Source: Chlamydiia bacterium (GTDB taxonomy: Bacteria; Chlamydiota; Chlamydiia; Chlamydiales; 2-12-FULL-49-11). Taken from it: a stretch of 33,411 bases of DNA. The stretch lies in the NCBI GenBank assembly GCA_044359535.1, contig JBIKLZ010000007.1:1-33411 (forward strand). Reading direction: 5' to 3'. Under the pieces are notes generated by a model. That model worked only from the letters and a program-made list of their open reading frames with translations, was not told the DNA's origin and made no database searches. This document shows, piece after piece, positions 7,864 through 27,834 of the stretch. A program made the position numbers and the translations under genes. Positions within the stretch are counted from its first letter, which is position 1, and each line of letters begins with the position of its first letter.

Positions 7864-7960
7864 TAATAATCATTTTATAATTGAAATAAAATCAAGAATT
7901 CGATAAAATAATATTATCTTAACAAGAAGATAACCATAAAAATAAAAAAAGGAGAAAAAT
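7864..7960 (+). promoter_or_regulatory. Conserved promoter/leader module, copy 1
   Basis: TAATAATCATTTT (7864-7876), -35 TTGAAA (7881-7886), 17 bp, -10 TAAAAT (7904-7909), palindrome TTATCTT-N6-AAGATAA (7914-7933), AAGGAG RBS. Near-identical to 8648-8744 and to 27739-27834 (minus). Confidence 0.8.
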
Positions 7961-8413
7961 ATGGCACATCAAGCAGCAGCAGCAGAAAGAGGACAGGGGT
8001 TTATCCCAGCAGCAGCAGCAGCAGAAGCAGAACAAAATGTAGCAGCAACAAAAAAGAGTCCAATGGATACAAAATTAGCTATTGGAATTGCACTCGTCGC
8101 GTTAGCGGTTTTAGGGGGTGTAGCAGCAGTAGTCCTTACATTTGCTTTTGCAATGCCTCTTATGCCAATAGTAGCATCTATCATTGGTGTATCAGGTGCT
8201 TTATTAGTAAGTAGTATAGTACTTCGTATTATTAAGGCAGTTCAAGCAATGGCAAGCGGTTCATTCACACCGTCAGCTACTCGAGAGCGTGTTGAATCAA
8301 ATCACTCAGAAACGGGAGAATTTACTCCTGCTGATAGTACTCGGCAACAAGACAGATCGCACGACGTAGATGGTGGTGGTAATGATGATAAAGAACAACG
8401 GCCGCAGCAATAA
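7961..8413 (+). CDS. Inc-like (inclusion membrane) protein with bilobed hydrophobic domain, paralog 1
   Basis: About 50-aa uninterrupted hydrophobic stretch with a central P-x-x-P turn (LAIGIALVALAVLGGVAAVVLTFAFAMPLMPIVASIIGVSGALLVSSIVL), low-complexity N-terminus, hydrophilic tail. Has its own RBS, promoter and terminator. Confidence 0.75.
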   Translation: MAHQAAAAERGQGFIPAAAAAEAEQNVAATKKSPMDTKLAIGIALVALAVLGGVAAVVLTFAFAMPLMPIVASIIGVSGALLVSSIVLRIIKAVQAMASGSFTPSATRERVESNHSETGEFTPADSTRQQDRSHDVDGGGNDDKEQRPQQ

Positions 8414-8476
8414 TAAAATACTGATAGTAATTCGAACAACAATCAATAAATCTAAATAAGTTTTTTGGTGTCGTCC

Positions 8477-8517
8477 AATGAAACACATTTATACCCATAA
8501 ATGTGTTTCATTTTTTT
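8477..8517 (+). terminator. Rho-independent terminator
   Basis: AATGAAACACATTTAT-accc-ATAAATGTGTTTCATT perfect stem followed by a T-tract. Confidence 0.85.
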
Positions 8518-8647
8518 CCGTTTATAACAACTGCTTTTTTTCTCCCCTTTTTATCCACTCTCCTAAAAGAATCGACATTACAAATCTTAACCCCTTTGAT
8601 AGACTTTTGTGAAATTTAATTTATAGTTTATTAAAATATATTTATTT

Positions 8648-8744
8648 TAATAATCATTTTATAATTGAAATTAAATCTAGACTCCTGTACAATAATATTA
8701 TCTTAACAAAAAGATAATCATAAAAATAAAAAAAGGAGAAAAAT
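8648..8744 (+). promoter_or_regulatory. Conserved promoter/leader module, copy 2
   Basis: TAATAATCATTTT (8648-8660), TTGAAA (8665-8670), 17 bp, TACAAT (8688-8693), ATTATCTT-N6-AAGATAAT (8697-8718), AAGGAG RBS. Confidence 0.8.
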
Positions 8745-9599
8745 ATGTCAGATGGATCAATAGCTACAGCAGTATCAACAGGATCAAAAGTAGCAACAAC
8801 ACAAACACCAACATCAACAACTAAAAACAAGGGTCAAATTGATCCAAAATTAGCTCTTGGAATTACACTCGTTGTGTTAGCCGTTTTAGCAGGTGTAGCG
8901 GCAGTAGTCCTTACATTTGCATTTGCAATGCCTCTTATGCCAATAGTAGCACCCCTCATTGGTGTATCAGCTGTTTTATTAACAGTGGGTGTTGCAGCGC
9001 TTATTGGTTACAATCACGATAAAGTAGCAGCACTAAGAGCAGCAAAAGAAAAAGCATCATCAGTAACAATAACAGCAGATCCAGAAACAGCACCAACAGA
9101 ACAAACACCAGCACCAGCACCAACAGAACAAGCACCAGCAGCACCAGCAGCACCAGCAGCAGCACCAACAGAAACAGGAACAACACCAACAGAACCAGGA
9201 ACAACACCAACAGAAACAGGAACAACACCAACAGCAGATCCAGAAACAGAACAAGCACCAGCACCAGCAACAGAGGAAGAAGCAGCACTAGCAGCAGCAC
9301 CAACAGAACAAGCACCAGCACCAGCACCAGCACAAGCACCAGCACAAGCACAAACAGAAGAAGAAGCACCAGCACCAGCAGCAGCGAACCCGAACATTCC
9401 TGTCCCTCCACCACTTCCAACCACGGCTGCGCTAAGAAATATTTGGAAGGCTCCAAGAACAAACGAACCAGCACCAGCAGCAGCAGAAGCACCAGCAGCA
9501 GCAGAAGCAGAAGCACCAGCACCACAAGGATTCGGAATGGACAAAAACGCTCTTGGAAATGCAATTAGCAACTTAAGAAGAGTCCGTAAAAATAATTAA
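8745..9599 (+). CDS. Inc-like protein paralog 2 with Pro/Ala/Thr/Glu repeat stalk, polyproline and C-terminal WH2-like motif
   Basis: Bilobed hydrophobic domain nearly identical to paralog 1 (GVAAVVLTFAFAMPLMPIVA shared); Ser/Thr-rich N-terminus; low-complexity stalk; IPVPPPLP; DKNALGNAISNLRRV at the C-terminus. Confidence 0.75.
   Translation: MSDGSIATAVSTGSKVATTQTPTSTTKNKGQIDPKLALGITLVVLAVLAGVAAVVLTFAFAMPLMPIVAPLIGVSAVLLTVGVAALIGYNHDKVAALRAAKEKASSVTITADPETAPTEQTPAPAPTEQAPAAPAAPAAAPTETGTTPTEPGTTPTETGTTPTADPETEQAPAPATEEEAALAAAPTEQAPAPAPAQAPAQAQTEEEAPAPAAANPNIPVPPPLPTTAALRNIWKAPRTNEPAPAAAEAPAAAEAEAPAPQGFGMDKNALGNAISNLRRVRKNN
9072..9527 (+). repeat. Coding low-complexity tandem repeats (GCA/CCA/ACA/GAA codons), including 3 x 21-bp TE(T/P)GTTP units at 9168-9230
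   Basis: acagaaacaggaacaacacca x3 (one mismatch), duplicated TADPET and PTEQAPA blocks, (gcacca)n runs. Confidence 0.85.
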
Positions 9600-9630
9600 T
9601 GTAAATTAATTTTTAAATTTTAATATCGCT

Positions 9631-9673
9631 AAATTGAGACACATTTCTTTTATGAATGTGTCTCAATTTTTTT
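9631..9673 (+). terminator. Rho-independent terminator
   Basis: AAATTGAGACACATT...AATGTGTCTCAATTT stem followed by a T-tract; homologous to the 8477 terminator. Confidence 0.85.
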
Positions 9674-26234: not shown

Positions 26235-26269
26235 TATTATTTTTTTATAAATTTTTAATTAGAATAAAA

Positions 26270-26313
26270 ATTATAAAAGATTTATATTTTTATTCAAAGA
26301 AAAATAATTATTA
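26270..26313 (-). promoter_or_regulatory. Promoter of the kinase-like gene with upstream TAATAATTATTTT motif
   Basis: Minus strand TAATAATTATTTT (26313-26301), TTGAAT (26297-26292), 16 bp, TATAAT (26275-26270). Confidence 0.55.
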
Positions 26314-26562
26314 TGTAAGGGTTTTTTAGAAATATCCCCTTTTCTTTAAATAGAAATGTCCCCTTTTGGGACTACTAAGGTAAGCAATTATGGGAGGCGC
26401 TAGCCATGGAAAGGTGTATTTATTTGATTATGAATGAGTTAAAACGACTAGAAATAGTCAAAAAAGTGATAGAAAAGCGATTAAAGCAGACAGAAGCTAG
26501 CGTAAAGCTGCTAAAACGATGAGTTAAACAATTTAGAGCCCATAAAGAGGATACGGCTTACA
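26314..26562 (+). mobile_element. Truncated IS1202/ISNCY-like element remnant (copy A): left end plus 5' transposase fragment
   Basis: Starts TGTAAGGGTTTTTTAGAAATATCCCC with a second TAGAAATGTCCCC sub-repeat; GGAGG RBS; ATG 26406 gives MERCIYLIMNELKRLEIVKKVIEKRLKQTEASVKLLKR* (HTH start typical of these transposases). Highly similar to 27835-28083. Confidence 0.8.
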
Positions 26563-26653
26563 TTACCCTTTTAAAGTCCCCAAAGACCATGAAATTACCA
26601 TTCTACTATTTGAAGTTTTTTGTATCGCTCCATTTTTTACTGATAATGGTTCT

Positions 26654-26684
26654 AAAAAAAGGGGTAAATAAAATATACCCCCTT
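26654..26684 (-). terminator. Rho-independent terminator of the Inc-like/DUF4116 gene
   Basis: Minus strand GGGGTA-loop-TACCCC followed by T7. Confidence 0.7.
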
Positions 26685-26734
26685 ATCAATAGAATTTAAA
26701 ACTCTAAATGTAGTAAGCAATAGCTAGAGATCCA

Positions 26735-27738
26735 TCATAACCCTGCTGCTGCACGTATTTCTGGATCTTTCAGTAATTCGGTGTCAGTTACATATTTAAA
26801 AGCTTGAGGCTTTTTTCTTACCGCAGCAAGAACAAAACTCCTATTGTTCCTTAATGTGGGATCTGCATGTATAAGAGCCATGCCATTTTGCGTTACCGCA
26901 GCAAGAACTACATTTCTTTTTGCCTTTAATGTGGGGTGTGCATGCTCAAGAGCGAGACCACATTGGTTTACCGCACGAAGAACTAAATTTTCATTTGCCT
27001 TTAATGTGGAATCTGCATAAATAAGAGCCATGCCATTTTTCCCTACCGCAGTATAAACCACTTCCCAATTTTGTTTTAATTTGTGAGCTGCATACTGAAG
27101 AGCGAGGCCATTTCTCCCTACCGCAGCACGAACACATATCCTATTTGCCTTTAATGTGGGATCTGCATGTATAAGAGCCATGCCATTTTGCGTTACCGCA
27201 GCAATAACCACATGAAAATCTTTTTTTAATTTGTCAGCTGCATACATAAGAGCCATTCCATTGTTCCTTACCGCAGCACGAACCACTTTCCAATCTTGTT
27301 TTACTTTTTGAGGTGCATGCTCAAGAGCCATACCATTTCGCTCTACCTCAGCAAGAAACCAACTCGTAGTTAAATCAGGTGCACTATTAATTGAATTATT
27401 CGGTATGTTAGAACAAACCGCATCTATACCTGTCTGAATTATTTCACCTGCATTTTCTTCCTGTAGAAGTGCTGGTTTTTGACATAGAATTTTTTGCTCT
27501 ATGAGCATTGCAATCCCTACTATGCCTAAACTAGCGGCGCAACTTCCGACTAGTGCTGAAACAACAATCATTGAAAAACCTAAAAAAGAACTATTGATGC
27601 TATAGCTGCTAGAACTGCTAGCACGACTAATGTAATTCCAATTCCTACTAGGATATTTCTCTTCTTATCTCGATTTGATGGTGGTTGTATTCCTGCTGCT
27701 TCTCGTGAGCTATGTACTGGGTAAGAACCAACTGCCAT
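26735..27738 (-). pseudogene. Inc-like paralog 3 with DUF4116-like ~25-aa repeats, frameshifted in a T6 tract (27582-27587)
   Basis: ATG 27738 gives MAVGSYPVHSSREAAGIQPPSNRDKKRNILVGIGITLVVLAVLAAIASIVLF* (TAG 27580-27582). One extra T fuses it to LGFS-MIVVSALVGSC... of ORF 26735-27571, whose C-terminus has AV.QNG.AL..A...LK....V repeats. Confidence 0.8.
26790..27355 (-). repeat. About 7-8 tandem 75-bp coding repeats (DUF4116-like)
   Basis: ttaccgcagc / aagagcca motifs recur every 75 bp; a block of over 50 bp at 26851 is repeated at 27151, 300 bp away. Confidence 0.85.
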
Positions 27739-27834
27739 ACTTTTTTCCTTTTTTATTTTTATATTATCTTCTTATTAAGATACTATTATCTTATATATTT
27801 CTCTGTTTTATTTCAATTTTTGAAATAAATATTA
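27739..27834 (-). promoter_or_regulatory. Conserved promoter/leader module, copy 3
   Basis: Minus strand TTGAAA (27816-27811), 17 bp, TAAGAT (27793-27788), TATCTT-aataag-AAGATA palindrome, ataaaaataaaaaaggaaaaaagtATG. Confidence 0.75.

Follow-up and report, generated by a model that had tools for sequence, protein, structure and literature searches.

Separable leader, anchor and tail modules in a putative Inc-type gene family of an uncultured freshwater chlamydia

Inclusion membrane (Inc) proteins of chlamydiae such as IncA–IncG are described as sharing little or no primary sequence similarity (PMC3656976) and are recognised by a bilobed hydrophobic domain of 40–60 residues, with helices of 15–32 amino acids and an uncharged loop of 3–22 amino acids (under 30 amino acids) (PMC3048545). 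A secretion signal that worked in a Shigella assay was carried by 86–93% of Inc candidates (PMC3048545). Here, a family of Inc-like genes is analysed that was noticed in a stretch of 33,411 nucleotides (hereafter the window), contig JBIKLZ010000007.1 of assembly GCA_044359535.1 of a Chlamydiia bacterium. Three members lie in the window, at the starts given by a preliminary sequence-only reading, 7961 (+), 8745 (+) and 27738 (−), and each joins an upstream leader to a hydrophobic hairpin, termed the anchor, and to a tail of its own. The family resembles the Incs in its chlamydial organism, a short hydrophilic N-terminus, one two-helix bilobed domain of 40–60 residues with a short Pro/Gly-rich turn, a variable tail (cytosolic in Incs) and scattered genes with some clusters (PMC3048545). 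Unlike the Incs, it has no sequence relation to any named Inc family, and its hydrophobic domain is conserved at the DNA level among paralogs.

Other described systems share parts of this layout. The CP1054 Inc family of Chlamydia pneumoniae is likewise a species-restricted expansion of paralogs with a bilobed domain each, but its members are also predicted to share an IncA-type domain (PMC3290821), whereas the tails of the present family are mutually unrelated; several CP1054 members are listed with DUF1978 and coiled coils (PMC3048545). Unlike CP1054, the lake-chlamydia family has a promoter cassette as a further shared module. Viratyosin et al. are said to have described in 2002 how length variation of homopolymer tracts breaks frames in the CP1054 family. 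Terminal reassortment, as reportedly set out by Stavrinides, Ma and Guttman in 2006, joins a promoter and N-terminal secretion region to unrelated C-terminal domains, often beside mobile elements, and is said to concern soluble effectors, largely of plant pathogens. In contrast to that scheme, the membrane anchor here makes up a third module of its own, and conservation is lowest in the N-terminal codons that separate it from the leader. The NEX and PEX families of Neochlamydia and Protochlamydia are comparable in their lineage-specific, rapid birth-and-death of putative type III effectors with heterogeneous architecture, but they are far larger (50–138 members) and are defined by F-box, BTB, LRR or TPR and not by a membrane hairpin (PMC4209131); the words "promoter" and "upstream" are absent from the main text of that paper. 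No paper naming DUF4116 together with chlamydia was found in a literature search. Against these precedents, and within a non-exhaustive search of the literature on Inc module exchange, what differs here is a sequence-conserved and separately exchanged anchor, combined with unrelated tails and with a promoter-palindrome cassette shared by a subset.

On balance, the evidence favours a lineage-specific family of Inc-type secreted membrane effectors, which would evolve by module reassortment together with birth-and-death. The window is contig C54 of a metagenome-assembled genome (MAG) of 1,208,810 bases (57 contigs, 36.7% G+C), the completeness of which was estimated at 92.6%. By tblastn and an anchor profile, 12 strong anchor copies were found in this genome: three in the window, three on C35, two on C36 and one each on C12, C14, C26 and C33, with a few weak look-alikes on C13, C19 and C53. 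The dispersed copies with unrelated C-termini that the sequence-only reading had anticipated are hence present. In all 12 proteins examined with a hydropathy script (11 of the organism's own and one of a relative), a single charge-free block of 50–60 amino acids with a mean hydropathy of 2.1–2.5 was measured, which has the two helices, charge-free loop and length of about 40–60 residues of the published Inc definition (PMC3048545), as had been proposed. The anchor begins after a conserved Lys, and its central turn reads MPLMP, IPLMP or Gly/Ser, with Pro, Gly or Ser near the middle. It is preceded by a hydrophilic part of 25–59 amino acids in 11 of the 12 proteins and of 259 residues in the C14 protein. 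Over the first 24 residues, S+T+P+Q+A make up 54.5%, against 25.8% in the proteome, and L+I+F only 5.9%, against 24.5%.

Behind the homologous hydrophobic domain the proteins diverge, as the sequence-only reading had stated. The tails are mutually unrelated and comprise hydrophilic ends of 5, 62 and 90 residues, Pro/Ala/Thr-rich repeats, DUF4116 stretches (in the gene starting at 27738, hereafter gene 3, and in the C36 copy C36a) and domains of 260–340 residues without a sequence match in Pfam, NCBIfam or the PDB. PDB sequence searches with four family members gave nothing below E 0.2, and NCBIfam gave nothing over its cut-offs for family members. For the anchor, no Pfam or NCBIfam family reached its cut-off, so that no relation to a general prokaryotic function was found.

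The anchor was absent from all 40 genomes of relatives searched at E ≤ 0.001 (among them 8 congeneric species and 21 from the same family), and with the leader included, neither module was found in any of them; the copies in relatives that the sequence-only reading had proposed to look for are missing there. A search of 1.84 billion representative proteins with the anchor profile returned 12 matches, and a word-seeded search among the longer proteins of a 5.8-billion library returned 10; these were mostly the organism's own proteins or near-identical versions. New architectures among them were P0010 (anchor and six DUF4116 stretches), P0011 (anchor and an unknown domain) and P0005. DUF4116 scored 57.8 bits in C36a and 147.4 bits in P0010 (cut-off 24.9). 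Versions of ortholog type occur in related populations (P0006, P0009, P0015, P0017), and repeat numbers differ among relatives (P0008 against C35a, P0015 against P0004). When a five-row anchor alignment was compared with metagenome contigs, four loci were obtained; two candidates, L102 and L103, were dropped, as they proved to be signal peptides of unrelated high-GC proteins. On this distribution, the family is taken to be young and restricted to one lineage of uncultured lake-water chlamydiae.

The leader, of about 97 nt, is common to the three window genes and has the composition that had been read from the sequence: TTGAAA-17-TAnnAT (7881–7909, 8665–8693 and 27816–27788), then after 2–5 nt the inverted repeat TATCTT-N6-AAGATA, an A-rich tract and a ribosome site, AAGGAG (AAGGAA in the third gene), 6–7 nt before the ATG. 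Leader 1 occupies 7864–7960 (+), with its −35 element TTGAAA at 7881–7886, its −10 element TAAAAT at 7904–7909, the inverted repeat TTATCTT-N6-AAGATAA at 7914–7933 and AAGGAG at 7949–7954, after the A-rich tract. Leader 2 lies at 8648–8744 (+), with the −35 element at 8665–8670, the −10 element TACAAT at 8688–8693, the inverted repeat at 8698–8717 and AAGGAG. Leader 3, at 27739–27834 (−), has its −35 element at 27816–27811, its −10 element TAAGAT at 27793–27788, the inverted repeat at 27782–27765 and AAGGAA before the ATG, and its upstream edge abuts the end of a repeated element. The first two leaders are 91% identical over 101 nt (7863–7963 and 8647–8747; 86% in a module-wise comparison), and 27834–27739 is 81% identical to 7864–7958 across 96 nt.

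Taken by itself, the promoter match does not rise over the chance level of such A+T-rich DNA (9 sites, with 7.3 ± 2.4 in shuffles). The composite of promoter and palindrome does: it occurs at four places in the 1.21-Mb genome and at none in the 40 relatives' genomes, and a reversed control pattern gave no match. An nhmmer profile of the leader returned the same four places at E ≤ 4e-18, with the next match at E 0.016. The fourth copy precedes the family gene C35:108946–109647; all four genome copies precede family genes and none a housekeeping gene, an arrangement that would have spoken against the sequence-only reading. A fifth copy was found in a near relative, at the syntenic glgB site. The palindrome arms are invariant in all five copies, whereas the spacer is either 6 or 10 nt long and of variable sequence. 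The palindrome is located where transcripts should begin and could be either an operator or a 5' stem. On the shared sequence the four leader-bearing genes are probably expressed together, and as the leader accompanies only 4 of the 12 copies, co-regulation is possible for a subset at most. Several candidates were rejected in the course of these searches: the palindrome as an RNA hairpin, since it is weak and not above shuffles in four of five copies; five other TATCTT-N-AAGATA sites in the genome, which fall within or next to genes unrelated to the family and were regarded as chance occurrences; and the AAGGAG-bearing 3' end of the leader as a family signature, since it is a general ribosome site found also before small genes on C13, C19 and C30. 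Apart from the family, two identical 140-nt upstream stretches at C13:4190–4331 and C13:6082–6223 both run into this strong ribosome site and a frame of 14 codons, with weak anchor-like hydrophobic open reading frames nearby (C13:4807–4938 and C13:6699–6830); this pair is a tandem duplicate of another small membrane-protein locus.

Genes 1 and 2 form a tandem pair. Gene 1 (7961–8413, +) encodes 150 amino acids, with an Ala/Gln-rich N-terminal part of 38 residues, the uncharged hydrophobic hairpin at residues 39–88 (nt 8075–8224) and a hydrophilic tail of 62 residues; no Pfam or NCBIfam family was found for it. Gene 2 (8745–9599, +) encodes 284 amino acids, with a Ser/Thr-rich N-terminal part of 35 residues, the hairpin at residues 36–91 (nt 8850–9017) and a tail of 193 residues that is rich in Pro, Ala, Thr and Glu, includes a poly-proline stretch and is basic at its C-terminal end. 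Gene 2 likewise matched no Pfam family, a search with its protein gave no relative among the genome contigs, and its model in the protein Atlas is poor (pLDDT 0.46), with no usable look-alike. The WH2-like motif named in the sequence-only reading has no profile support, as no Pfam family at all was matched by residues 218–284 or 88–284, even at E ≤ 10; what remains is a resemblance, a proline-rich stretch ahead of a short basic helix. The claim that every gene has its own terminator was borne out by a hairpin after each of the three genes. That of gene 1 (8477–8512, +; hairpin and T-run, −17 kcal/mol, z −9.4) is homologous to that of gene 2 (9631–9669, +; hairpin and T-run, −18.7 kcal/mol, z −6.4) and to that of a relative's gene on the metagenome contig L101.

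When 7961 and 8745 were compared module by module, identity was 86% in the leader, 59% in the N-terminal part, 83% in the anchor, 25% in the tail and 74% in the terminator. The value for the N-terminal part (about 30 codons) is set against 52.7 ± 2.7 in shuffles, meaning that it is not conserved, and that for the tail is at shuffle level. Since the terminators are homologous, the pair was concluded to be a duplicated whole cassette, of which, judging from the alignment, the middle parts were replaced or scrambled afterwards. N-terminal parts and tails are built of GCA/CCA/ACA-type repeats. The proposal that one front end had been duplicated and grafted onto new payloads was therefore upheld in part: the tails are unrelated and mosaics exist, but the front end is no single unit, and some 30 unconserved codons part the leader from the anchor.

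Gene 3 is a mosaic. Its leader resembles that of 7961, whereas its anchor block (27475–27647, −) matches the C14 gene's anchor across 174 nt with 90.8% identity; the borders of this match are abrupt, at the start of helix 1 and just past helix 2, and the rest of the two genes has no match. The sequence-only reading had treated the gene as intact, which it is not in the assembly. The first piece (27580–27738, −) holds 52 codons, with the N-terminal part and the first helix, and ends in TAG at 27582–27580; the second (26735–27610, −) continues in another frame with the second helix, a linker and DUF4116 repeats of a 75-nt period. The repeats themselves had been recognised correctly, since the second piece matches DUF4116 (PF13475) with 186 bits (cut-off 24.9; Pfam E 7e-56) in five stretches. 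A terminator-like hairpin (GGGGGUA...UACCCCU) with a U-run follows at 26658–26684 (−), in a 66-nt stretch of −14.9 kcal/mol (z −2.3).

The frame of gene 3 is lost in a T-run at about 27583–27590, across which the nearest paralog has one base more. Contigs of four sequencing runs could be compared here: those of X1 (possibly the sample of origin) and X5 have the sequence of the window, at depths of 6.8 and 5.9, and those of X4 and X9 (two of the four runs aligned) show a one-letter length difference, each in a single low-depth contig (3.8 and 2.5), and a single contig below depth 5 may simply be in error. Judged by their length, the X4 and X9 variants would be continuous in frame, and the break may be polymorphic in nature, although the evidence is thin. 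A separate disruption is seen in C36a (anchor and DUF4116; L001:663–670 on contig C36), in which the ATG is followed by TAA and gene callers use an internal GTG (P0012). The genome has five further open frames with DUF4116 that lack the anchor, on C42, C53, C31, C43 and C8; the one on C42 has a different hydrophobic stretch, and the one on C43 (588 amino acids) contains a motif that may resemble ubiquitin-specific proteases. Small proteins with long hydrophobic blocks of different families adjoin family members at L001:3096–3500 and L004:2723–3001, and both neighbourhoods are clusters of Inc-like genes.

The same discordance was found outside the window. On L101, which carries a GlgB 94% identical to that of the organism, a 133-residue gene occupies the same glgB-side place; its leader is 83% identical to the 7961 leader and its terminator is of the 7961 type, whereas its anchor is 91.7% identical to the paralog C36b as against 72% to 7961, and its tail is new. 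P0005 agrees with the C12 protein (P0004) in 89% of its first 113 residues, past which the two have nothing in common: P0005 closes with an acetyltransferase domain of the GNAT kind (Pfam Acetyltransf_10, at 28 bits where the cut-off is 23.6) and P0004 with a Pro-rich tail. Shared 5' regions joined to unrelated 3' coding regions, as in terminal reassortment, are hence seen in P0004/P0005, in gene 3 with 7961 and C14, and in the L101 gene with 7961 and C36b. In an anchor tree of 19 rows, the three DUF4116 bearers fall in three clades and the five leader bearers are scattered. In approximately unbiased (AU) tests, monophyly was rejected both for the genes with DUF4116 (p 0.0012) and for those with the leader (p 8.5e-7), on an alignment of 67 columns and with groups named after the tree had been seen. 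As far as these alignments go, leader and anchor are separable modules with discordant histories and not one fixed front end.

The organism is an uncultured freshwater chlamydia with genes for type III secretion parts. The window carries the housekeeping genes glgB, ligA, tgt, dus, rplM and rpsI. Among the TGT loci listed, the seven best are MAGs at 77–83% identity, six of them titled Chlamydia or Chlamydiia, and most of the other 73 bear chlamydial names (for instance Simkaniaceae, Parachlamydiaceae, Rhabdochlamydiaceae, Chlamydiales), which places the organism in the Chlamydiota. All 24 runs listed with this DNA are lake-water or freshwater metagenomes, and no RNA run is among them. SctV (FHIPEP) is present in the genome (E 2.3e-219), with an adjoining HrpJ/CopN-like gene (E 2.2e-12), and three secretins are encoded. 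In five more distant relatives of the same genus (L022 and L024–L027), other genes, one of them glutaredoxin-like, lie upstream of the Vut-tgt pair, where neither glgB nor hairpin genes were found; hence, the glgB-tgt junction with its two cassettes is a lineage-specific, rearranged spot.

A working model can be drawn by analogy with the Incs, for which the published definition and the rate of working signals in Shigella are the grounds (PMC3048545). Each member has the anatomy of an independent transcription unit and encodes a short, disordered N-terminus rich in Ser, Thr, Pro, Ala and Gln, a charge-free hairpin of 50–60 residues and a variable C-terminal tail. The N-terminus would direct type III secretion, with which its composition is compatible without being diagnostic; the hairpin would insert in the host-derived vacuole membrane, as in chlamydial Incs, and anchor the protein there; and the tail would face the host cytosol. 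The tails observed are linkers rich in Pro and Ala, DUF4116 repeats and domains of no recognised family, to which a relative adds a GNAT domain. Four members carry a regulatory cassette, in which a promoter of the sigma-66/70 type is followed by a palindrome, where the transcript is likely to start, and by a strong ribosome site. According to the comparisons, the family diversifies by tandem duplication, by recombination or gene conversion, through which paralogs exchange leader, anchor and tail separately, and by slippage in low-complexity tracts; inactivation and neighbouring remnants of mobile elements are seen as well. An extended form of this model, which we regard as doubtful, makes leader, hairpin and tail three portable modules shuffled by gene conversion, lets the length of simple runs switch genes on and off, and takes the palindrome for the operator of a stage-specific regulator gating a subset. 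If that were true, the population would carry a variable, contingency-type repertoire of vacuole-surface proteins.

Several observations weigh against the view of an Inc-type family that evolves by reassortment. The anchors weakly match the holin family Phage_holin_3_6 (PF07332) at E 0.0023–0.058, and in the published survey the inclusion membrane was the observed location for only 44% of those C. pneumoniae candidates for which localisation data existed (PMC3048545). The promoter is common to only 4 of the 12 anchor copies, and the palindrome folds weakly as RNA (−3.2 to −5.8 kcal/mol, z −0.25 to −2.45). Two of the 12 copies, gene 3 and C36a (stop at codon 2), are disrupted in the assembly, and part of the family may therefore be decaying. 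The shortness of the alignment and the late naming of groups in the AU tests count here too. Finally, contigs of the runs cover 7850–8516 poorly (mean depth 0.1–2.07), and in each of X1, X4 and X5 a contig enters at 8612 from sequence outside the assembly; the tandem arrangement is therefore without independent confirmation. The 255 letters joined at 8612 match neither the assembly nor the stored loci, and the join could reflect structural variation or an additional second-cassette copy that sits in different surroundings.

It is improbable, to begin with the secretion half of the argument, that the family consists of ordinary inner-membrane proteins, of a two-helix envelope, stress or holin-like kind, which are never exported and whose tails act inside the bacterium. 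Such a role would agree with the weak holin matches and with the survey, in which many predicted Incs were detected only in bacteria (PMC3048545). All of the holin matches, however, remain below the curated cut-off (13.9–18.4 bits against 28.4 in Pfam). Long disordered Pro/Ala-rich, DUF4116 or GNAT tails are more readily understood as partners of host molecules than as parts of a holin or envelope protein, neither the 40 relatives nor the other bacteria searched have the family, and the N-terminal composition resembles that of secretion-signal regions.

As for the reassortment, a history without any grafting is distinctly improbable, in which plain duplication was followed by very fast divergence of low-complexity N-terminal parts and tails, while leader and anchor were kept by selection. 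The tandem pair 7961/8745, which retains leader, anchor and terminator, would suit it, as would the slippage-prone GCA/CCA/ACA-type repeats and the repeat numbers that differ between P0008 and C35a and between P0015 and P0004. Yet it fails on gene 3, with a C14-like anchor (91%, sharp borders) under a 7961-like leader, on the relative's glgB-site gene, with leader and terminator of the 7961 type around an anchor of the C36b type, and on the exchange of GNAT and Pro-rich tails after 113 common residues in P0005 and P0004. The AU tests argue against it as well. Differences between anchor codons, synonymous to non-synonymous, are 4:19, 1:6 and 2:10; as they are mostly non-synonymous, the likeness of the anchors is ascribed to recent shared ancestry (duplication or conversion) and not to old constraint, and the few synonymous differences argue for recent exchange.

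Mobile elements have left traces around the family. A 263-nt direct repeat is present at 27823–28085, with 90% identity to its second copy at 26302–26564, which lies downstream of gene 3 and upstream of the next gene (26234–25710, −). The upstream copy has inverted arms (27830–27861 and 28199–28230), and pieces of the repeat recur on C12, just upstream of a family member, and on C20, C38 and C50. It looks like the remnant of a mobile element (insertion sequence, IS), and its short plus-strand frame (MNELKRLEIV..., broken by stops) may correspond to a transposase N-terminus. On L104, a metagenome contig of a relative, a 332-amino-acid frame (560–1655) directly follows the −35 part of a second leader copy and is followed by the 3' part of a C36b-like gene; its N-terminus looks like that of an IS30-family transposase. 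Fragments of this element flank the C26 family member in the genome studied here.

These remnants, which flank gene 3 and the C12 and C26 members and in L104 sit inside a leader, together with the two broken copies, would fit a collection of mostly non-functional debris, spread and scrambled by mobile elements while it decays, but we consider this very unlikely. In ten of the 12 copies a long open frame is complete with start codon, ribosome site and terminator; related populations have retained orthologs (P0006, P0009, P0015 and P0017); and the leader of L101 is 83% identical, against 43% for the intergenic DNA beside it. The one-letter length difference at the gene 3 break, seen in single low-depth contigs of two of four runs, points the same way.

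That the mosaics are artefacts of metagenome assembly or binning, made by chimeric joins across repeated anchors and leaders, is barely credible, even in a MAG of 57 contigs with several members on short contigs (4.7 and 6.1 kb), three runs with a loose end at 8612 and thin coverage of 7850–8516, because the shared blocks are 83–92% identical rather than identical, so that each is a distinct copy, because contigs of other samples bridge the gene 3 junctions without a difference (27595–27841, spanning leader, N-terminal part and anchor, in X1, X4 and X5; 27175–27624, spanning anchor and repeats, in X1), and the same proteins occur in independent library records. A contig joint flagged as "goes back 1521" was set aside, being merely the 263-nt repeat running past the end of the aligned stretch.

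Some other features of the window deserve mention. The gene at 13410–14627 (+) encodes a protein of 405 amino acids without a Pfam family, and frames of similar length with a strong hydrophobic stretch stand at the same place relative to tgt and EamA in L022, L024, L026 and L027, position and not sequence having been compared; it may be another, older membrane effector candidate. A pair of tRNA genes, tRNA-Ile(GAT) and tRNA-Ala(TGC), lies at 14674–14829 (−) with no rRNA genes adjoining, and the very high run depth there is explained by conservation of the tRNA sequences across organisms. At 17994–19730 (+), a pyridine nucleotide-disulphide oxidoreductase of the NDH-2 type is fused to a C-terminal cyclic-nucleotide-binding domain (Pfam 7e-23).

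Inc proteins are the interface between chlamydiae and their hosts, and their origins are obscure because they have a shape in common but almost no sequence. In the family considered here, which we hold to be probably of Inc type, the anchor and the promoter cassette are still recognisable at the DNA level, so that the assembly of new Inc-type genes would become visible: a cassette is duplicated, its anchor is exchanged, and its tail is replaced or grows, all in the neighbourhood of mobile-element remnants. The promoter-palindrome element is a candidate regulatory site, and the locus would offer a natural system, in abundant lake metagenomes, in which the turnover of effector repertoires in uncultured chlamydiae may be followed.

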